Shown: in pieces, positions 6,441 through 62,983 of the stretch
How the letters are laid out: each line of letters opens with the position of its first letter
Numbering within the stretch: position 1 is the first letter of the stretch
DNA from: Octopus vulgaris
Lineage: Eukaryota
Direction: 5' to 3'
Length of the DNA: 64,000 bases
NCBI GenBank assembly: GCA_951406725.2
Contig: OX597821.1
Coordinates: forward strand, 47,740,001 to 47,804,000
Translations under genes and position numbers: made by a program
The notes under the pieces: model-generated
Told to the model about the DNA's origin: nothing
Seen by the model: the letters and a program-made list of their open reading frames with translations, nothing else
Databases searched by the model: none

Positions 6441-7674
6441 CAGGGGTTGGACAAAATAATTGAAACATCTTAAAATTTCAAGCAAATTTATTTTAATATG
6501 GGGTAGGTCTGCCTTTGGCAGTAATTACAGCTTGAATTCTGCAAGGTATGGACTCATACAAAGTTTGAATTGTTTCCAAAGGAATTTTTGTCCATTCTTC
6601 AGCTAAAACAATATCTGAGGGTGGAGGATTTGACTCCTTACTTGTTTTTCTAAAATGTACCTTAAATGTTCAATAATATTGAGATCTGGGGACTGTGGTG
6701 GCCAGATAAGATGTTCAACTTCATTAAAATGTTCCTCATGCCATTCAGTAATGACTTTAGCTGTGTGAACTGGTGCATTATCATCCTGAAAGACTGCATT
6801 TCCCTCTGGAAACAGTTCTGCAACCATAGGATGGATTTGATCAGATAAAATACTTAAATTGTCTTGACAATTAATTCTACCATGAAGGGAAACCATTGGG
6901 CCAGCAGATTTCCAAGATACAGCCCCACCCCCACCCCTGATCATCACAGATCCTCCTCCATGTTTAACAGTTGGAAGAAGGCAGTTAGGGTCAAATGTTT
7001 CTTTTGGCTGTCTCCAAATTGGCTGGTTGTCAGAAAGGATGACTTGTCCAAGAAAATAACATTCTTCCACTGCTCTTGGGACCTTGGGACCAATTCTGTA
7101 GGTTTTTACTCTACTCTGAATGCTTTGCAATGTTTGTTTTTGAAAGAAGTGGTTTTCTGATTGCAGTCCTCCCATGAGATCTGGCTTTACGTGAAAACTT
7201 GATTCTCAAGGTAGTCATTAAGCTCTGCAGTAATTTTGGGAGCTCTATTTTTGTGATCCTTTCTAACAATTTGTGTAAGAGTCCGACAGTCTCTATTTGA
7301 AAGCTTTGGTTTTCTTCCAGGGTTTTCTTTTGATGATGAGGTTTTTCCCTCTTTCTCAAAGGCTGTCATTACTTTTGAGACAGTACTTCTTGATACACCA
7401 AACATTTTAGCTGTTTTCATTATGCTAGCATCTGCCATATAAGCACCAACAATTTGACCTCTTTGAAAGTCCAATAGATCTGCCATTTTAGTGAATTTTA
7501 ATTATCTTTTTCTGATGATGTCTGAGAAGAAACAAAAATTTTAGCAAAACATATTAAGCAACACTAATAATTAATCAAAGAACATAAAATACACAAGCTT
7601 TTGATGGTTTTACAGATATTTCAAAATTATGATGCTATGATGCTAGGTGCTTCCATTATTTCGTCCAACCCCTG
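6441..7674 (-). mobile_element. Tc1-like DNA transposon, DD36E spacing (Incomer-like), 1234 bp
   Basis: TIRs caggggttggacaaaataa / ttatttcgtccaacccctg; TA TSDs at 6439-6440 and 7675-7676; transposase motifs present. Confidence 0.92.
6603..7486 (-). pseudogene. Frameshifted Tc1-family transposase
   Basis: DLLDFQRGQIVGA...GVSRSTVSKV (HTH), PGRKPKLS, TVKHGGGSVM, FQDDNAPVH, WPPQSPDLNIIEH split over several frames. Confidence 0.9.
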
Positions 7675-13664: not shown

Positions 13665-14922
13665 AGAGTGGCTGAAAAGTTCATAAGCTGACTCTGAAGG
13701 AGTGATACCAGAGCTGTAAAATCTTGTATGTATTAATTTCTGTTAATAACTTTTTTTTAATAATTAATAACTGCATTATTTCTTTCCAGGTAAACTGACA
13801 TCTGACTGTCTTAAGAAAACTTCAAAACTAACTAGTAGCAACCTTTCTTGAAAATGGAAAAAATTTGGCATTGTGGTGTTATTAAGTTCTTGTAGAAAAA
13901 GAGTTAAGCCTCCAAGATCATTCATACTAGTATGGTTGCTACATTAAGGGATGACACTCCAGCTTTATCAACAGTGCAAAAATGGATAATTGAATTTAGG
14001 AGAGGAAGGGAGCGTGTTGAAGATCACCCAAGGTCTGAACATCTTGCATCTGCCACTACTGAGGAAAACATTGGTTGTGTTTACCACATGGCGATGGATG
14101 ACAGGCAATTGACTATAAATCAAATAGCCAATGCTATTAGTATATTTTGTGAGAGAGTTGAGAATATTCTGCACAATGAACCTGGCATGGGGAAGGCCTC
14201 TGTGTGGTGGGTGCCACATCTTCTGACACCTGATCAAAAGCACACCAGGCTGATCATATCATGGAAAAATCTGCTATTGCCTGAGGTAAATCCAGCTGGT
14301 TTCCTTGAATGTTTCCTTGCCAAAGATAAAGTGTTGGGTGCTTCACTTTGAACCAAAAACAAAGAGATAATATATGCAGTGGAAACACACCCACATACCT
14401 ACTCCAAAGAAGGTATCTACAGAGATACCTTAGTTTTGGGGGTTGTGAAAGGCATCATACTTATTGACTATGTTCCAAAGGGTCACACCATCAATGGAGA
14501 GTACTATCCCTACTTGCTGAAGTAGTTATGAAAGGCTATCAAGAAGAAATGCCAAGGAAAACTGACAAAAGGAGTCATGAGTCATTGGGACAATGCTCCA
14601 GCATACAAGTCCTTGCTTTCAATAGCTGTTGTGCATGACTGTGTCTTTGAACTGATTGATCTCTGTCCCTTTTCTCCTGATTTGGCCCAATCTTACAATC
14701 AATCTGTTCCCAGCCAGGAACCAATATCACAGTGATGATGATGTCATAACTGCTTTTTGACCAACAGGATGAAATCTTCCTCACCAATGAGATCCAAGCA
14801 CTGCAACATCAATGGAAGAAGTGTATGGAAAGCAAGAGGGACTATGTTGAAAAATAAACCTCATTTGGTCAGATTCTATGAGAGTATCTTGGTCAAGCTA
14901 TGAACTTTTCAGATGACCCACG
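13665..14922 (+). mobile_element. Degraded mariner (DD34D-type) transposon
   Basis: TIRs ggctgaaaagttcataagctgac / ggtcaagctatgaacttttcagatgacccacg-TA; motifs STVQKWIIEFRRGRE, WVPHLL, DNAP, SPDLA. Confidence 0.85.
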
Positions 14923-31024: not shown

Positions 31025-31049
31025 CATATATATACATATATATATATAT

Positions 31050-31388
31050 AAACAACTTATAAACAAAGGCAAAAGAAAAAAATTCTAATGCCAAATATGC
31101 CGAAAATAGACAAATTGTCAATAACCATATAATTTATCACTATAAACACGCATCTCGAAGTAAGCCGACAGAAATTTCTAAAAAATTCCGTTATTATCGT
31201 ATCAGTCCCAATTTCAGAGTTAATTCATAAGAATTTTCTCCTCGTCAGTGATAAACACGTAAGACATAAATGAAATACTTACTCATACCCATGGAAGAAT
31301 TCAGAATTTTTTCTTTTGCCCTTGTTTATAAATTTAACCTTTAAAGGTATTTTTTAATATGCTGGCCATTGATAAAATTTTTTTCGAT
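31050..31388 (-). mobile_element. (TA)n-embedded inverted-repeat element with hammerhead core
   Basis: IR tataaacaaaggcaaaagaaaaaattct / agaattttttcttttgcccttgtttata; same family as 60101-60430; minus-strand CTGACGA at 31248-31242. Confidence 0.7.
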
Positions 31389-31861: not shown

Positions 31862-32971
31862 CTATGCGGAACTGATGCCGGAAGCAGCCCGGGTCTTTGC
31901 AGTCACAGCATATCTCCAGAGATCTCGGTCCTTCGCCATTGCCTTGGTGAGGCCCAACGCTCTGATGTCAAGCTTGACTGCCTCATCCCATGTCTTCTTG
32001 GGTCTACCTCTCCCCCTGATACCTTCAACTGTTTGGGAGTGGCACTTCTTCACACATCTCTCCTCATCCATCCACAGCACATGACCATACCATCGCAAGC
32101 GTCGCTCTTGCACACCACATCTGATGCTTCTTATATCCAGCATTTCTCTCAGGATGCTTACACTCTGTCGTGCGTGCACACTGACATTACACATCCAGCG
32201 GATCATACTAGCTTCATTTCTTTCAAGTCTACGCATGTCCTCTGCAGTCATAGCCCATGTTTCATTACCGTGAAGCATGGCAGTTCGCACACATGCATCA
32301 TACAGTCTACCTTTCGCTCTGAGGGAGAGACCCTTTTTCGCCAGAAGGGGTAGGAGCTTTCTGAATTTTGCCCAGGCTATTCGTATTCTAGTGGTGATAC
32401 TCTCTGTGCATCCACCTCCGCTACTAACTTGGTCACCCAGGTAGCGGAAACTATCAACTACTTCTAGTTTCTCTCCCTGGAGTGTGAAGGAATCTGCTTT
32501 CTGAGTGTCTGTGGTGTCTATTGTCCCTGTGCATCTGCCGCACATGAAAGCTATCTTATCTGTTAATTTCCCTTTAATGTTGCTGCACCTCTTGTGCGTC
32601 CATAGCTTACATTGGGTGCATCTTATGGAGTTTCTACCTGCACCTTTCCTACAGATTGAGCAGGGCCACCTACCCGAGGGGGTGTGTGCTGAGTACGCCT
32701 TGCTGCTTACTATTACTTTGGTCTTTGCTACATTTACTCTAAGGCCCTTTGATTCTAACCCTTGCTTCCACACCCGAAATTTCTTTTCTAGTTCCGGTAG
32801 TGATTCTGCTATGAGAGCCAGGTCATCAGCATAGAGGAGCTCCCAGGGGCATCCTGTTTTGAATTCCTCTGTTATTGCCTGGAGGACTATGATGAATAGA
32901 AGGGGACTGAGGGCTGAGCCCTGGTGCACACCTACTTCTACCCGGAATTCTTCACTATATTTCGTTGCCAA
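31862..32971 (-). CDS. RTE LINE protein, C-terminal part after the frameshift: RT core, PHD-like finger, thumb/C-terminus
   Basis: GVHQGSALSPLLF, LLYADDL, FRYLG, RRLRWYGHV, GRGRPKKTW; joins the upstream ORF if one A is removed at GGC AAC GAA ATA TAG. Confidence 0.92.
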   Translation of the reverse strand: MATKYSEEFRVEVGVHQGSALSPLLFIIVLQAITEEFKTGCPWELLYADDLALIAESLPELEKKFRVWKQGLESKGLRVNVAKTKVIVSSKAYSAHTPSGRWPCSICRKGAGRNSIRCTQCKLWTHKRCSNIKGKLTDKIAFMCGRCTGTIDTTDTQKADSFTLQGEKLEVVDSFRYLGDQVSSGGGCTESITTRIRIAWAKFRKLLPLLAKKGLSLRAKGRLYDACVRTAMLHGNETWAMTAEDMRRLERNEASMIRWMCNVSVHARQSVSILREMLDIRSIRCGVQERRLRWYGHVLWMDEERCVKKCHSQTVEGIRGRGRPKKTWDEAVKLDIRALGLTKAMAKDRDLWRYAVTAKTRAASGISSA

Positions 32972-35048
32972 TCCTAACCTTGCTGGCAGCCTCTCTGTAT
33001 AGAGCCTGTACAGCCCTTATTAGCCATTCGTCAATCTCCAGTTTCCGCATCGACCACCAGATAAGGGAACGGGGAACCCTGTCAAAGGCTTTCTCCAAGT
33101 CCACAAAGGCTATGTAGAGGGGTTTATCTTTAGCTAGGTACTTCTCCTGCAGTTGTCGGACCAGGAATATAGCATCAGTGGTGCTTCTACCTGGCACAAA
33201 ACCGAACTGCATTTCATCTAAGCAAATTCTCTCCCTAATGAGATGGGTTATGACCCTCTCTGTGACCTTCATCACCTGGTCCAACAGTTTGATACCCCTG
33301 TAATTATTTCTATCTAGAGCATCACCCTTACCCTTGTAGCAGTTGACTATGGTGCTGCTACGCCAGTCATTGGGTATGACTCCATTGTCAACTACCTGGT
33401 TTACAATGCGGGTGACTATGCCATAGCCCACATAGCCAGCTGTTTTAAGCATCTCAGCAGTGATTCCTGATGGGCCGGGGGCTTTGCCTGGTTTCATATC
33501 CTTAATTGCCTTATCTACAAGGGAGCTGTCTATTCGGGTAGCTGGTCCCTCTACTGGGTCAACATTTGGCAGGCTCTCCTCCTCCCATTCATTCTCCTCG
33601 TTCAGCAGTCTTTCGTAATAGCTTCTCCAAGCCTCTTTCTTTTCACTAACAGTAAAAGCAAGTGCCCCATCATCCATGCGGACACATTTCTCTCCTGTAA
33701 CATCACTATTTTCTCTGACACACTGTCTGGCAATCCGAAATACCTCAGCTCTTTGGTCCTCACGTCGCTGGACATTGGCAAACTTCTTCTTTTCTGCTAC
33801 ATCTTTGGCTATGTATACCTGCCGCCCAGCCTCCCTTTTGGCTGCCTGGTACAGTTCCCTGCTGCCCCCATCCCTCCAGGCATTCCAGGCCCGTCTCTTT
33901 GTACTAATGGCTTTATCTACTGCACTGTTCCACCACCACGTAACTCTAGGTCTGGAAGGGACTCTGCACCATCCACAGACTCGGTCTGTGGCACTCAGCA
34001 AGCTGTCCCGTAGGAATTCCCAGCTACCTTCTATGTCTGACGTCTGGAGCTCCTCTTCCCTCTCATCAAATTTCTTGATGAGTATGTCCCTAAATTTCTG
34101 ACCATGTGAAGGGTTCTTTAGCCTCCAAATCCTTCTTTTCTGGATTGGTTTGTTTTTTGGAGTCCTTCTGGCCTCAAGCTTAAAGTCACTGATAATTAGT
34201 CTATGCTGAGGGATACATTCTTCACCCGGGAGGGTCTTTGTATTCAAGAGTGACCTTGCATATCGCTGTCTGGTGAGGATGAAGTCTATTTGGCTAGCGG
34301 AGTCTCCTGACTGATAGGTTATAAGGTGGCAGTCAGGCTTCTTGAAGTTAGTGTTGCAGATTGAAAGGTTACATGCATCACAGAATTCCAGCAGTCTAGT
34401 TCCCTCATCATTTCTGGTGCCAATACCATGGCCACCGTGTACCCCAGTGAAGATACCCGATTCCCGCCCAACATGCCCATTAAAATCTCCACCCACAAAG
34501 ATGAGGTCCTTGCCACTAGTCTTTGAAGTAGCCTGTAGAAGGGTATCATAAAAGTTGTCCTTCTGATCATTTGGTAGTCCCGCTTGTGGGGCATAGGCGG
34601 AGATAATCGTAGCTGTGCCACTCTGTAGGACCAACCTGAGCTTGAGCACTCTATCGCAAACCCTGACAACCTCTATGACCTTATTCACCCATTTCTCCGC
34701 AAGGAGAATGCCTACACCCCCTACACCTTCCATGTTACCTTGCCAGAAGAGTTTGTACCTAAGTGCCTTGCCTGTGAGGACCCTAGCTGAAGCACCTCTC
34801 CATCTTACCTCTTGTATGCAGCATACATCAACCTGTCTTCTCTGAAGCATCTCTACAATCTCACTAGACCTGCCTTTCAATGTACCAACATTGATAGTGC
34901 CAACTCTGAAAACTGGGAAGATGTGGGGGGGAGGGGGGCAATTCAGTGCCTGAGAAGAAGAGGGTTGTTGTGGTGGTGATGGTTTTCGTGGCATTTTTCT
35001 TCTGATCTCTCTTCCGGGGGGGGGGGGTCCAGCTGAGAAAGGTTCCAC
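32955..35048 (-). CDS. RTE LINE protein, N-terminal part: APE endonuclease plus start of reverse transcriptase
   Basis: VGTINVGTL, CCIQEVRW, ISAYAPQ, GDFNGHVG, QIDFIL, HRLII; KAPGPSGI, YRGIKLL, QFGF, FVDLEKAFDRV. Confidence 0.92.
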   Translation of the reverse strand: MEPFSAGPPPPGREIRRKMPRKPSPPQQPSSSQALNCPPPPHIFPVFRVGTINVGTLKGRSSEIVEMLQRRQVDVCCIQEVRWRGASARVLTGKALRYKLFWQGNMEGVGGVGILLAEKWVNKVIEVVRVCDRVLKLRLVLQSGTATIISAYAPQAGLPNDQKDNFYDTLLQATSKTSGKDLIFVGGDFNGHVGRESGIFTGVHGGHGIGTRNDEGTRLLEFCDACNLSICNTNFKKPDCHLITYQSGDSASQIDFILTRQRYARSLLNTKTLPGEECIPQHRLIISDFKLEARRTPKNKPIQKRRIWRLKNPSHGQKFRDILIKKFDEREEELQTSDIEGSWEFLRDSLLSATDRVCGWCRVPSRPRVTWWWNSAVDKAISTKRRAWNAWRDGGSRELYQAAKREAGRQVYIAKDVAEKKKFANVQRREDQRAEVFRIARQCVRENSDVTGEKCVRMDDGALAFTVSEKKEAWRSYYERLLNEENEWEEESLPNVDPVEGPATRIDSSLVDKAIKDMKPGKAPGPSGITAEMLKTAGYVGYGIVTRIVNQVVDNGVIPNDWRSSTIVNCYKGKGDALDRNNYRGIKLLDQVMKVTERVITHLIRERICLDEMQFGFVPGRSTTDAIFLVRQLQEKYLAKDKPLYIAFVDLEKAFDRVPRSLIWWSMRKLEIDEWLIRAVQALYREAASKVRIGNEI

Positions 35049-35489
35049 CAGTGAGAAGAGAGGGAGAGAAAGCGGGGGGTGCAGGTAATATAGGGAAGCA
35101 CCAGCGGGGAAGGTTGGGGTAAGAAGGAACGATGATAGGGAGGGGTGGGAACAGGTTCGTAAGAGATAAAAACGTAGGATATCACAAGGGGTGGGGGGGA
35201 CTGGAAGGAGATAGCCGGTTGAGGCGGTGACAGATTCAAAACAGGAGGAACGTAAGATCAGTGGGGCGGTTGATGAGCTGCGGCTCTAGCTGCTTGTCTT
35301 GGTGGGGGGAGGTGTAGTACACAGTGAAAGCATGTGAGGAGGAGGGGTAGGAGGGAGAGACACGTAATGGTGGTGGGGGAGGAGGAGGGAGGAGGGCATA
35401 TCCGGTGTAGATGGTGTGAACAGTGTGAACAGTGTTCACTGGTATTGGTGGTGGGGGTGGGGGTGGGAAAGGGCGGGAGCACCGCGAAT

Positions 35490-35754: not shown

Positions 35755-36392
35755 AATGAAGGTCAGCTGAAAAGCTCATATACTGATCAAGACACTCTCA
35801 TGAAATATGACCAAATGAAGTTTATTTTGCTGTTGACACACTTCTTTCATTGATGATGCAGTGCTTGGATCTTAAGTTTTCATCATGTTGATCAAAAAGG
35901 TCATGATTACCAGATATGACATCATCAAAACTGTGATACTGGTTCCCAGCCAAGTGTTCTTTTTTTAAAATTTTGGAGAACAAATTGATAGTCAGATGGA
36001 GCCAAATCAGAAGAAAAAGGATGGGGGGGGGTCAATCAGTTCAAAGCCACAGTCATGCACACTAGCCATTAAAACCAAGGATTTGCATGCTGGAGCATTG
36101 TACTGATGAAACAAGACTTCTTTCATCAATTTTCTTGGGCGTTTGATCTTGATACCCTTTTGTAACTGCCTCAGCAAGGTGGCATAGTACTCTCTGTTGA
36201 TGGTGTAGCCATTTTGAAGATAGTCAATAAACACAGTGCCTTTTGCATCCCAAAAAGCTGGCCATAACCATCCGTACATATGAAATTACCTTGGCCTTCT
36301 TTGGAGCAAATGAGGAGTGTTTTCACTGCATGGATTGTCTCTTTTTCTCTGGTTCAAACCAATGAACCTAACACTAGTGTCTCTTTCACTGT
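35755..36392 (-). mobile_element. Mariner relic, 3' half (same family as 13665-14922)
   Basis: TIR gaaggtcagctgaaaagctcata; FWDAKGTVFIDYL...GYTINREYY...VLFHQYNAP. Confidence 0.8.
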
Positions 36393-43191: not shown

Positions 43192-43595
43192 TTCCAGTAT
43201 TTTGTGTAAACATACCTGGCCACCGGAAATAATTACCTTGCTTGGAAAGAGATGAGTGATGACAGGTAGGACATCCGTCCATTGAAAATTGGCTTCAATA
43301 AACTCCATCTGATCCATGCAAGGATTAAAAAGTGGACATTAAAATGATGCTGATGATGATTACAAAATACTAATAAAGACAAGTAGATATAGGTTCCAGT
43401 ATTTTGTGTAAACATACCTGGCCACCGGAAATAATTACCTTGCTTGGAAAGAGATGAATGATGACAGGTAGGACATCCGTCCATTGAAAATTGGCTTCAA
43501 TAAACTCCATGTAATCCATGCAAGGATTAAAAAGTGGACATTAAAATGATGCTGATGAAGATTACAAAATACTAATAAAGACAAGTAGATATAGG
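43192..43595. repeat. Direct tandem duplication, 202-bp unit x2
   Basis: ttccagtattttgtgtaaacatacctggcc...aagtagatatagg at 43192 and 43394, with few mismatches. Confidence 0.9.
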
Positions 43596-45473: not shown

Positions 45474-46600
45474 ACAACGTCATCGTCATTTAACATCTAT
45501 TGTTCATGCTGGCATGGGTTGGATGGTTTAACTAGAACTAGCAAGCTGAGGAGTTGCACCAGACTCCAGTCTGATTTGACATGATTTCTACAGCTGGATG
45601 CCTTTCCTATCACCAACCACTTTACAGAGTGTGCCAGATGCTTTTATGTGGCACCACATAGGTGCTTTTACATGGCACTGCCATGAGTGCTTTATACCAC
45701 CAGGAGGATCGATTTCAACATTTCTGCTGCAGAATATGGGTTTTCTTGAGTACAGCAAGGTGTTAGACATCTCTGTCTTTTGTCATCACACCTGAAAGTT
45801 TCAGCATCCTGAGGTCGTTCTTCAGTACTTCATCCCATGTCTTCCTGGGTCTCTCACTTCCATGTGTTCCAGCTATTTTGAGAGACTGGTACTTCTTTAT
45901 GGAGCTGTCGGCATCCATCTGCATTGCATGACCAAACCAGCACAGTCTTCTGCCTTGCACACAGCAACTGATTCCTCTGATGCCTAACTTCTCTCTCAGA
46001 ATGCTGGCACTCTGTTGAACATGTACACTTACACTACACATCCTGCAAAGCATATAGGCTTATCCCTTTCTAACCTTCACATGTCCTCTACATTTAGGGC
46101 TCACATATCACTACCATGTAGAATTGCTGTCCGTATACATGCATCATACAATCTTCCTTTCACTCAGAGCGAAAAGCCTTCCATGGCCAACAGAAGTAAC
46201 AGCTCTCTGAATTTCCTCCATCCTATGCTTATTCTAGTTATCTCACTCTGTGCATCCTCCCCCACTACTAATTTGGTCCCCTAGGTAGCAGAAATTATCT
46301 ACTACTTCTAATGAGCCACCAGGGCATTTGAGAGAATCAATTTCCCAAGTCTCTGAAGTTTTTATGGATCCAGTGCATCCTCCACATACAAACACTCTTC
46401 CCAGTGTTCCTAATCCACTGCACCTCTTGCATGTCCATAGCTTACACTGGGTACATTGTATGGAGTTCCTGCCTACACCTTTCCAACAAATCAGACAGGG
46501 AAACCTACCTGACCCTAACCCTACCTGACCCTAACCCTAACCCTAACCCTAACCCTAACCCTACCTGTCAGTTTTCTTGTTTACTTGGACCTTAGTCTTT
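45441..46600 (-). mobile_element. Degraded RTE LINE fragment
   Basis: (CAT)n tail; minus strand LREKLGIRGISCCVQGRRLCWFGH...RPRKTWDEV plus a PHD-like finger remnant. Confidence 0.85.
46513..46563. repeat. Interstitial telomeric-type (CCCTAA)n repeat
   Basis: ccctaaccctacctgaccctaaccctaaccctaaccctaaccctaaccct. Confidence 0.85.
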
Positions 46601-58590: not shown

Positions 58591-60100
58591 ATGAAGAAGA
58601 ACACTGAACTCTGGTGAGATTTTTGAGGAAAAAATGTTATGCTTTTCATACACAAAAAACAAATGTTACTGAGAAATATTTGAATGTTATTGTTTTTGGT
58701 GTAGTTGTAGATGTAGATAAAGGGTGGTTAGTAACTTGTCAGCTACTGACATCTGATGTCGTTTGTCCTGTAACTGTTCATTGCCTTTGTGTTGTCAGCA
58801 ACTGTTTGCTGTTTCTGTTGACCATTTCCAACAGCATCTGTCAATGCTCTCTCTGTTGTATCCTAAAATTTTGTCTATATCAGTCATGGTGTATCAAATT
58901 TATACTGGTTGATAGACTCAGAAGGAAGCACACCAAAATATGAGATTGTCACTGGAGCCTATTCCATAAGAAGTTGTGATTGCTCAGATTTTTTGTTGAT
59001 CACATGGGCAATATTCTAGCAAATTGCAACATTGGGTGGTTACTGAATATCCCTGCTACACATGTATCATGTTTTAAAATTATCTACATTAAAATTTTTC
59101 ATCAAAATTTAATCTAGGTTCCAAATACTAGCATAATGATGGCAAATTTCTTCCTTATATCATTTACTGTACTATTACATGTACTATTGCAGGTACTATT
59201 ATTGATACTATGATTAACTATTACCAGTAGTATTATTGGCACTATTACTGGTACTGTTACTAGTATTATAGCAGTTACTAGAATGTAGTTGGTTGTATTG
59301 GTTATACTTCTAACACTTTAGGTAGTGTGCCAAGTGAGGAGAGACTGACTTTGTGCAAATTTCTATTGCTGGAAACAGCAGAAAATCTACAAAGGAAAAC
59401 AACATACTTTAAAAGGAAAATTAATGAAAGAAAATATTCGTCAGGTTGTAAATTTAAGAAACTCTGTTCTATAGAACTATCTCTCTTAGATTATTAGCAT
59501 TTCCCCTCATTTCAAATGTTTGATATTTTTGTAGGCAATGCAACAATGAAGTTGAATAACATGAAAGGGAATAAGTTTTAAACTACCTCACCATGTGGTT
59601 GGTTTGAATACCGCATAGAATTATATACGAAGTAGCGGAAAGAAATATATTCTTGTTTATGTAGAGAATTTAGAAAAGTCCATACTATTTATGTTTTAAC
59701 TGTGTTTCATTAATGTAAGTCAGGCACAGAAACATTCACATGGGATGCCAAATTATGTTCTTGTAGCTGTGTACATGTCTTTATTTATGCGTGTGCATAT
59801 GTGCCTGTGTATATACTAACACACAAACACACAGATACACATACATGCATATATATGTATAAATATATGTACATAGAGAGACCTGGTCTTTTGTTCTCAG
59901 TTCATAACACCCCCCCCTTTCCAATGTTCCATGCTGGAGAGAAGATAACAGCTCCAAAATAAATGAATCAGTCAATCTGGGTGGGTGGTTTTTGAATCCT
60001 GACTTGGTGTGTTTACACCTATCTGCCTACAGATGATTGCAGTCTTAGGACTGAAACAAGTAAAAGCTAAGTGATAATGTATATATACATATATATATAT

Positions 60101-60430
60101 ATAAACAATTCATAAATAAGGGCAAACAAAAAAATTTCTAATGCCAAATATGCCAAAAAATTGGACATATTGTCCATTAACCATATAATTTTTTCACAAT
60201 ATGCATGCTACTCGAAAAAAGGTTGACAGAAATTTCTAAAAAATTTCTAAAAAATCGAGTGGTGTGCGTATTGTGAAAAGATTATATGGTTAATGGACAA
60301 TATGGCCAATTTTTCGACATATTTGGCATTAGAAATTTTTTCGTTTGCCCTTATTTATGAATTGTCTATAAATTTAACCTTTGAAGGTATTTTTTAATAT
60401 GCTGGCCATTGTTAAATTTTTTTCAAAAAG
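60101..60430. mobile_element. (TA)n-embedded inverted-repeat element (family of 31050-31388)
   Basis: ~115-bp arms at 60101-60215 and 60255-60369 plus the shared tail aaatttaacctttgaaggtattttttaatatgctggccatt. Confidence 0.75.
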
Positions 60431-60461: not shown

Positions 60462-60496
<35 letters not shown>

Positions 60497-60498
<2 letters not shown>

Positions 60499-60898
60499 CG
60501 TAGGAGTGGCTGTGTGGTAAGTAGCTTGCTTACGAACAACATGGTTCCAGGTTCAGTCCCACTGCATGGCACCTTGGACAAGTGTCTTCTACTATAGCCT
60601 CGGGCCGACCAAAGCCTTGTGAGTGGATTTGGTAGACGGAAACTGAAAGAAGCCTGTCGTATATATGTATATATATATATGCATGTGTGTGTATATGTTT
60701 GTGTGTCTGTGTTTGTCCCCCCAACATCGCTTGACAACCGATGCTGGTGTGTTTACGTCCCCATTACTTAGCGCTTCGGCAAAAGAATAGGCTTACAAAG
60801 AATAAGTCCTGGGGTTGATTTGCTCGACAAAAGGCGGTGCTCCAGCAAGGCCACAGTCAAATGACTGAAACAAATAAAAGAGTAAAAGAGTAAAGAGT
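60497..60898 (+). mobile_element. SINE family A
   Basis: High identity to 201-616, small internal deletion. Confidence 0.9.
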
Positions 60899-61109
60899 AT
60901 ATATATATATATAAGTAGTTGAATGAATTATCTTAGTATGGATAATTCGGTTAAGCGATACCTGGGTAGCAAATTCACGTCAGAAAAACACGGTTGAAGC
61001 TACATGCCAAGGGCAGAGATCACGTGCTTTTGTGTGGAAATTTGTGTGTTTTTTTAATACAAATAAATGAAAGAATGGAGTTGAACGACGATTTAACAAA
61101 ATTCCTTTA

Positions 61110-61190
61110 TTCTCGACATGTTTCGAAGGCTGCATATTCCTAATTTCGAAGGAATAAGGGGTGCATTATGCCTCCTTCTCATCAGGAAAA
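61110..61190 (-). ncRNA. Intact minimal type I hammerhead ribozyme
   Basis: TTTTC-CTGATGA-GAAGG...CCTTC-GAAA-CATG-TC^GAGAA-TAAA; all core nucleotides canonical, GUC site. Confidence 0.85.
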
Positions 61191-61972
61191 ACAAGGAACT
61201 TATGTCAGCATCAAGATGAGCAAAAACTCTTAGATGACTGCCCACACGGAGTCCATCGCGATAATGAGTGTTTTTTTAAAATATTCCGTTATAAGCAGTG
61301 ATGTCAAAAATGGTTGAATGTAGAAGATTCTAGAAAGTTCAAGGGTTCAAACAAGGTTGGAGGGGAGAGATTGAAAGAATAGGAAGGTGATAGGGTGCAA
61401 GTCATATGAATGGTGATGTGTTGTTTGCTTTTGTGATTGAGTGCCTATGTGTATGTATGTATATAACTGCATTCGTGTCTATGTGTGTGTGTGCGTGATT
61501 GTGTGTGTGGTTGGGTAGATGCCAAAAACAAACAGTGGTGAAGTGACAGGTTTGTGTCTGTGTGTTTGATTGTGCTTACGATAGAGAGAGGGAGAGAGAG
61601 AGAGGAGGGCGAGGTAGAGAGACAAAGGTAAAACATACCTCAACGAATTCGGTAGTAATCCTTTATGAGTATAAAAATTTATCTATGGGGGTGATGTATA
61701 AATGGAACCAAATTATTAAAATTCAAGGAGGTTATCTATATTAATCATCATTCATATGAGTGAAAGGTATGTTTTTGCCAGTGCATGCACCTATAGGATT
61801 TTTCAACTATTGTATTTATTAAAGGGAATTTGGCGAACAATATATGGAAAAGTTTGGAATCACAGACGCCACAAAATAATGGAATATTTTAACACTCATT
61901 ATCGCGATGGACTCCATGTGGGCAGTCATCTAAGAGTTTTTGTTCATCTTGATGCTGACATAAGTTCCTTGT

Positions 61973-62055
61973 TTTTCCTGATGAGAAGGCGGCATAATGC
62001 ACCCCTTATTCCTTCGAAATTAGGAATATGCACCCTTCGAAACATATGTTGAGAA
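61973..62055 (+). ncRNA. Intact minimal type I hammerhead ribozyme (GUU site)
   Basis: TTTTC-CTGATGA (61978-61984)-GAAGG...CCTTC-GAAA (62039-62042)-CATATG-TT^GAGAA-TAAA. Confidence 0.8.
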
Positions 62056-62104
62056 TAAAGGAATTTTGTTAAATCATCGTTCAACTCCATTCTTTCATTT
62101 ATTT

Positions 62105-62158
<54 letters not shown>

Positions 62159-62983
62159 ACACACATATATAAATATATACATATATATATATACATACAT
62201 ATAATACATACATATAGATATATATTCTTTTATTCTTTTGTTTCAGTCATTTGACTGCGGCCATGCTGGAGCATCACCTTTAGTCAATGGGGACATAAAC
62301 AAGACAATGGGAGAAAAGCCAGTGATGTTGCTTGTATAATCCCAGCAGAGCAGTGACTATTACACATAGCCAAGGGTCAAATAGGCAGCAAAAGAGCAAA
62401 CTCTTGAGGTGCCTGAGGACCAAATCTAAAAGACAAAAAGGATCAATGGTCCTTTTCAAGCCCTAGGATTATAAGCCTTGTTTTTCAGATTCTGTGGCAT
62501 ATGTATTTCTTCTGACCCTAGATGAGATGCCACTTCATTACAAGATTACTCACTCTTGCCAGCTAAGTGGAATGAAGTGTTTTGCCTAAGATCACAGTGC
62601 ATCACCTTGTCCAAGAATCAAAACCACAATGTTATGATCATGTGTGCAACTCCCTAGCCATATTCCACATACCACCAATTAAGGGCCAAATGCTGACATT
62701 AAATTAAGGGAAATTAAGGTGAACTTCACTAAAGGTATCCAAAGACAAAATATATATAGGACAAAATTAGTGCTAAACTGGGTGCCATATTAATTGCACC
62801 ACTCCAAAACAAGAGACTACCCCTACGTGACTTTCATGTCATTTCCTGTTACTCACAGATCTTTAGGTCAACCCTAGCCTTTGTGCAGTCAAGTGGAACC
62901 CAATGGCATGGGATTATGAAAAAACCTGCTTAATCACATGACCACATTAAACATTAAAAGGGTCTCTTTTCACTTCTTCTTCC

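Follow-up and report, generated by a model that had tools for sequence, protein, structure and literature searches.

An inverted hammerhead pair in Octopus vulgaris: a probable decayed insertion of a Hydra-clade PLE

Results and discussion

Two hammerhead motifs on opposite strands

The window, a 64,000-nucleotide stretch of the Octopus vulgaris genome (contig OX597821.1, positions 47,740,001 to 47,804,000), contains two inverted arms of about 230 bp, each carrying a type I hammerhead motif (Table 1). A sequence-only reading of this DNA had proposed such a pair, which is confirmed by the 94.0% identity of the arms over 234 columns (seven substitutions and two indels) and by a generic hammerhead descriptor that finds two matches in the window, whereas 200 block-wise dinucleotide shuffles give 0.005 on average and at most 1. 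Each motif combines a CUGANGA plus GAAA core, a UH cut site and three helices with helix I open, as in type I hammerheads. C3 falls at 61185 in the left motif (minus strand) and at 61978 in the right (plus strand), and the positions of H17, 61115 and 62050, agree with the cuts that had been expected at 61115/61114 (minus) and 62050/62051 (plus). The stem II GAAGG/CCUUC is found in both arms, as had been described, together with stem III palindromes of different length (ACAUGU on the left, ACAUAUGU on the right) and a second CCUUC-GAAA within the stem II arm (62011-62019). The 'perfect core' attributed to both arms holds for CUGAUGA and GAAA, but the cores are not identical, the cut triplet being GUC in the left motif and GUU in the right; four of the seven arm substitutions, C17 to U among them, are CpG-type changes in the right arm.

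Rfam returned no match to either hammerhead at the gathering score and none among the 36 matches down to E=10, a miss for which the length of the stem II arm is the likely cause. A third, looser motif (at 43552) did not pass a stricter descriptor, and the motif pattern matches found in metagenome and viral contigs, one in each, both lacked stems and are attributed to chance, one of them (L001) lying inside a bacterial chemotaxis gene.

Table 1. Features of the locus, in window coordinates
Feature	Position	Strand	Basis and details
Left-flank (TA)n microsatellite next to a SINE-like repeat end; likely target of insertion	60898..60912	.	
Putative main 5′-truncated PLE copy: ORF end, 3′ UTR, hammerhead arm, tail	60913..61875	-	Continuity over 61474-61605 from the window alone
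148-bp tail, present at one end only	60913..61060	-	
Left arm (part of the pseudo-LTR)	61061..61292	-	Arm comparison
Left hammerhead	61110..61190	-	Stem I 61190-61186/61114-61110; core 61185-61179; stem II 61178-61174/61129-61125; GAAA 61124-61121; stem III ACAUGU; C17 61115; A61173, predicted cause of the slipped stem II
3′ UTR with CA/CT-rich simple repeats	61293..61747	-	Three contig pieces bridge 61292/61293
Last 41 endonuclease-domain codons plus stop, CxxC ... IN-x3-E-x4-CxH-x2-K	61748..61873	-	Motif
Right arm: short inverted, 5′-truncated copy without tail	61876..62104	+	Arm comparison, flanks
Right hammerhead	61973..62055	+	Stem I 61973-61977/62051-62055; core 61978-61984; stem II 61985-61989/62034-62038; GAAA 62039-62042; stem III ACAUAUGU; U17 62050
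(TA)n microsatellite, right flank	62107..62150	.	

Endonuclease remnant, tail and flanks

The sequence-only reading overlooked both the endonuclease remnant (61751-61873, minus strand) and the one-sided tail (60913-61060). Read on the minus strand from 61873 to 61751, the DNA translates as CGVCDSKLFHILFAKFPLINTIVEKSYRCMHWQKHTFHSYE, followed by a stop. The endonuclease of Hydra-clade Penelope-like elements (PLEs) ends with CxxC and CxH motifs flanking a conserved E and N, the published alignment closing, for example, with C-D-L-C-L-T-E-K ... L-N-K-R-S-E-L-I-S-K-C-R-H, and the clade is also marked by (TA)n targets and hammerheads (Craig et al., PMC8557442). The remnant fits this C-terminal motif except that the first E is a K and the spacer from C to N is one residue short. 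The endonuclease-end pattern, written after the match had been seen, occurs once in the six frames of the window and in none of 200 shuffles. Of 15 differences within the family that are listed for 61749-61828, nine (one of them stop-to-stop) leave the translation of the remnant unchanged, as against one to three of the 15 in four other frames; one plus-strand frame, which shares third positions with the remnant, also reaches nine, but contains stops. Protein sequence searches with the 41-aa remnant yielded no real relative, only two repetitive artefacts and no usable Atlas match, and a Pfam search of the six read-through frames of 61293-61875 gave one weak, irrelevant match. An open plus-strand frame of 110 aa (61720-62049) had no Pfam match.

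The element is flanked on both sides by (TA)n, the preferred target of the Hydra clade, its hammerhead lies downstream of the ORF end on the sense strand, as in Hydra-clade elements, and 5′ truncation, an adjacent inverted copy and a tail at one end complete the layout of a PLE. Assignment to the Hydra clade is likely, based on the motif compared by eye, the (TA)n target and this layout; the upstream hallmarks of such elements, a Penelope-type RT with RWK and DKT, a CxCX5C linker and GIY-YIG, would have been lost from this copy by the truncation. The last codons of the tail (60914-60932, minus strand) read D-N-S-F-N-Y and are directly preceded by an in-frame stop; their likeness, by eye, to the SFNYS, FDYS or IGYS with which Hydra-clade ORFs begin (PMC8557442) weakly suggests that the tail extends into the start of the next ORF.

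Other repeats surround the element. Two inverted SINE-like ends of 49 nt (60826-60874 and 62237-62285; 90% identical) enclose it and would lengthen the duplex of a read-through RNA; the flanking SINE has an octopus-like look. A SINE-like head at 60496-60660 has 11 matches in the window (77-100% identical), and a MITE-like fold-back element at 60094-60376 consists of 122-nt arms (90%) and a 39-nt spacer, with a partial second copy at 31041-31187. Further away lie a long LINE ORF in two frames (31865-35285, minus strand), encoding an endonuclease and a reverse transcriptase with a PHD finger within the RT region, and remnants of Tc1/mariner-type transposases at 6606-7205 and 36010-36285 (Pfam DDE_3 and Transposase_1) and, by eye only, at 13908-14348. 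Pfam searches of 125 of the 254 candidate frames, mostly at 35-64 kb, detected transposon domains but no host gene in the neighbourhood of the element; the one other match, to a FYVE-type zinc finger (46246-46530, minus strand; E 0.00097), is below threshold and probably due to chance.

Related copies and the two stem III lengths

Sequence related to 60913-61875 is abundant in all four sequencing runs searched, in which 3928, 2704, 332 and 855 contigs match; these contigs show neither the ends nor the strand of an RNA, and their summed depth is not taken as copy number. Three of the 32 listed contig pieces (records 12, 21 and 28) cross 61292/61293, and one crosses the border between arm and tail, which ties the UTR and the tail to the left arm in further copies as well. 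None of the contigs of the four runs covers the simple repeats at 61474-61605; the ORF end and the arm are therefore unlinked outside the window. Among the 13 joints found in other copies, six change strand; three of these, in one contig each, lie at the arm-tail border (61055-61057).

The stem III loops (CAUG and CAUAUG) differ by a central AU, a duplication or loss that preserves the palindrome automatically. The longer form recurs in 19, 16, 4 and 5 contigs of the four runs, at 4-24% of depth, and is either a family allele or a recurrent slip. The persistence of a palindrome despite the change in length had been noted as the property needed for dimeric cleavage; since the AU change cannot break the palindrome and the longer form is common among the copies, it is no sign of selection here. 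Loose contig ends at 61108, which occur in three runs, continue, when read on the sense strand, into an 8-nt stem III (ACACGUGU or ACAUGUGU), A17 and a different stem I. Those at 61149, in two runs, retain both the inner hairpin and the sixth pair of stem II, lack the second CCUUC-GAAA and carry a different inner loop in the stem II arm. These continuations, read from 24 of 458 rows, appear to represent a sister subfamily with a different hammerhead and are a stronger indication of selection, because of them a self-complementary stem III and a long stem II arm looking conserved in the family.

Predicted folds of the two arms

The 5-bp stem I UUUUC/GAGAA is present in both arms, but in fold predictions it continues, after a 2x2 internal loop, to 23 pairs. 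The AAUAAA that had been placed directly behind the cleavage site is indeed near it, but begins 3 nt past the cut and lies within this helix; as a free poly(A) signal it was discounted, being buried in the predicted stem. About half of the family depth has a change at 61190, the outermost base of the 5-bp stem I, with no compensating change among the listed rows. The 54 nt that separate the core halves are predicted to form a long structured arm whose inner hairpin occupies the second CCUUC; the alternative inactive fold that had been suggested for this CCUUC consequently has a pair probability of 0.00 and makes up about 1e-9 of the ensemble in either arm.

The native stem II has a predicted probability of 0.01 in the left arm, because A61173 shifts its register by 3 nt, and of 0.99 in the right. 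In a span-limited fold the native stems I and II of the right arm reach 0.84-1.0; in one unrestricted 812-nt fold its stem II falls to 0.03. At 61173, 77-98% of the summed depth across the four runs holds the base of the right arm, and 61130 is absent among the best 40 of 125 family differences, which suggests that the sixth pair of what is likely a six-pair family stem II (GAAGGC/GCCUUC) was lost separately, on the 5′ side in the left arm and on the 3′ side in the right. The stem II losses, the left slip and the CpG-type changes form the pattern expected of neutral decay.

Origin of the locus and competing explanations

We consider it very probable that the locus is an old, 5′-truncated insertion of a Hydra-clade PLE, in which one pseudo-LTR ribozyme was copied twice in opposite orientation and is predicted to be inactive. 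The endonuclease of the element would have cut the (TA)n tract, and reverse transcription would have begun at the tail end and halted within the endonuclease domain to give the main copy; a second, short copy, begun about 148 nt earlier, would then have been joined in inverted orientation at the 5′ end of the main copy, after which neutral mutations would have accumulated in both. An inverted 5′-truncated copy combined with a one-sided tail is the published arrangement of PLEs: Penelope-13_HM has an inverted copy layout with two opposite hammerheads (PMC8557442), opposite-strand hammerhead pairs 100-700 bp apart have been reported (PMC4209133), and the tail of PAc marks two reverse-transcription start sites (PMC11167929). 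At 61229, 61257 and 61274 both arms have a base from which 82-99.8% of the summed depth differs, pointing to one event for both; they could also stem from two templates, the longer allele of stem III being frequent among family copies. The hammerhead of the active parent likely processes a tandem precursor RNA, either as a strand-swapped dimer or with the protein of the element, and the sequence-only reading is judged right in assigning these hammerheads, with their palindromic stem III, to a mobile family that has an autonomous partner.

In a read-through RNA of either strand the antisense arm precedes the ribozyme and, in the predicted fold, pairs with 78 of its 81 bases (minus) or 79 of its 83 (plus); forcing the ribozyme to form costs 112.8 and 113.5 kcal/mol in the two cases. 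Read-through RNA of either direction is predicted to form a duplex of about 230 bp that buries the ribozyme, a sequestration that, in these models, only an RNA starting between the arms would escape. The expectation that transcription through either strand would meet a ribozyme thus runs against the predicted pairing and its penalty of about 113 kcal/mol. Nor is the description of an intact pair and best candidate for an active RNA supported, given this duplex, the predicted misfolding of the left motif and the lost sixth pair of stem II. Both motifs are probably inactive at this locus, which would be an ordinary one, and inverted hammerhead pairs like it would give rise to long double-stranded RNA instead of cleaved ends.

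According to the models, the right arm could still cut in an RNA that starts between the arms, and the very improbable variant of the same origin in which the locus is functional builds on this: a promoter between the arms would give divergent RNAs free of the antisense arm, and at least the right hammerhead would cut, alone or as a trans dimer. The right arm retains its native stems in the span-limited fold, its stem III can form two base pairs and a tetraloop, a type called more stable in PMC7229834, its U17 is no bar to cleavage, occurring in 10 of 26 Hydra-clade hammerhead rows (PMC8557442), and a right-right double hammerhead is predicted to be favoured over two monomers (-79.8 vs -73.0 kcal/mol). 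Against this variant, no promoter is known between the arms, the sixth pair of stem II is gone from both arms, the left arm has a predicted misfold, and monomers are favoured over the left-left (-77.4 vs -82.6 kcal/mol) and left-right (-72.5 vs -77.8 kcal/mol) dimers. Any dimer must, we infer, exchange the 23-pair stem I between strands, and a dimer of the two arms in cis is impossible, the motifs lying on opposite strands. Moreover, metazoan PLE hammerheads are published as weak cutters in vitro, and that of PAc needed protein, had no matching read ends and was dispensable for insertion in vitro (PMC11167929).

A composite origin, with the ORF-end piece (61616-61875) derived from a different PLE family and the arms from a non-autonomous, retrozyme-like partner, is decidedly improbable. 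It would account for the lack of contigs spanning 61474-61605, for a summed depth that is much higher over arm and tail than at the ORF end and for the other 3′ sequences that join near 61715-61730, and animal retrozymes have been proposed to derive from pLTRs (bioRxiv 10.64898/2026.07.22.740005). However, the ORF end, UTR, hammerhead and tail follow in canonical order on one strand, there is no head-to-tail repeat, and 5′ truncation alone explains the difference in depth. A non-LTR tandem retrozyme was likewise set aside, the window holding only two inverted copies, no head-to-tail units and an ORF remnant. Hardly credible is a non-autonomous, MITE-like DNA transposon whose 230-bp terminal inverted repeats happen to hold a hammerhead: long inverted arms do lie near both ends, but the repeats are not at both termini, the left arm standing 148 bp inside the element behind the tail, most of the related sequence includes that tail, depth declines gradually on the 5′ side of the arm, the interior has a retroelement ORF end, and the six strand-switch joints already suggest copies without paired arms or with varied inversion points.

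Novelty and comparison with known systems

What is new is the family, which is abundant, missed by Rfam and characterized by the 54-nt length of its stem II arm, by a predicted 23 pairs in stem I and by two alleles of stem III; the kind of element and the inverted arrangement are already known, the locus being a decaying copy. Three motif words of the octopus hammerhead are absent from the supplement of Craig et al. (PMC8557442), the family is absent from the short supplement of PMC13282606, the repeat library of that paper lying outside the comparison, and the literature covered does not describe the ribozyme reported here, which the supplements of PMC4209133 and the Repbase and Dfam libraries, outside its scope, could contain. 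The locus itself matters little, and the family is of modest specialist interest; hammerheads that escape Rfam and short-spacer descriptors imply that the motif may be severely undercounted in such genomes, and a comparison of the two stem III lengths could distinguish cleavage in the monomer from cleavage in the dimer, a matter not yet settled for PLE ribozymes. Tentatively, and as an unlikely reading, one may envisage a very abundant Hydra-clade element with an Rfam-invisible hammerhead whose stem II arm of 54 nt is conserved and whose stem I has 23 pairs, in which the 6-nt allele would cut only as a dimer or with protein, the 8-nt allele could cut alone, and the long arm would serve as a binding or folding switch for the protein of the element; if so, the coexisting alleles would be a natural allelic test of why PLEs keep hammerheads.

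The closest parallels are the Hydra-clade elements described by Craig et al. (PMC8557442), which share the C-terminal CxxC/CxH, the (TA)n target and a type I hammerhead behind the ORF, Penelope-13_HM among them also having an inverted 5′-truncated copy with a second hammerhead. The octopus element departs from the Hydra-clade rows of that study in its stem II arm (54 nt vs at most about 25 nt in 26 rows), in its fully palindromic stem III of 6 or 8 nt (vs 9-10 nt) and in its longer 3′ UTR; the hammerhead of Hydra-1_Obim differs from it, and long loops occur in the Selaginella PLE-X1 hammerheads too. The metazoan PLE hammerheads of Cervera and de la Pena (2014, PMC4209133) resemble those described here in their short palindromic helix III and dimer-type design, in opposite-strand pairs a few hundred bp apart and in many dispersed truncated copies, whereas the octopus motifs have no extra base between A9 and G10.1, a predicted 23-pair stem I and a long, branched-looking stem II arm. 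The PAc Poseidon element of Anolis (Frangieh et al., 2024, PMC11167929) likewise has a tail at one end, an AT-rich target and a hammerhead in its pLTR, but belongs to another clade, its tail measures 30-40 bp as against 148 bp, and its ribozyme is protein-assisted, whereas the one described here is known from its sequence. Finally, animal non-LTR retrozymes (PMC7229834; bioRxiv 10.64898/2026.07.22.740005) share the type I hammerhead and a weak palindromic helix III, and those of the axolotl have two helix III strengths in one genome, resembling the two stem III lengths of the octopus family; they differ in forming non-coding head-to-tail repeats, in contrast to the inverted pair with an ORF remnant found here.
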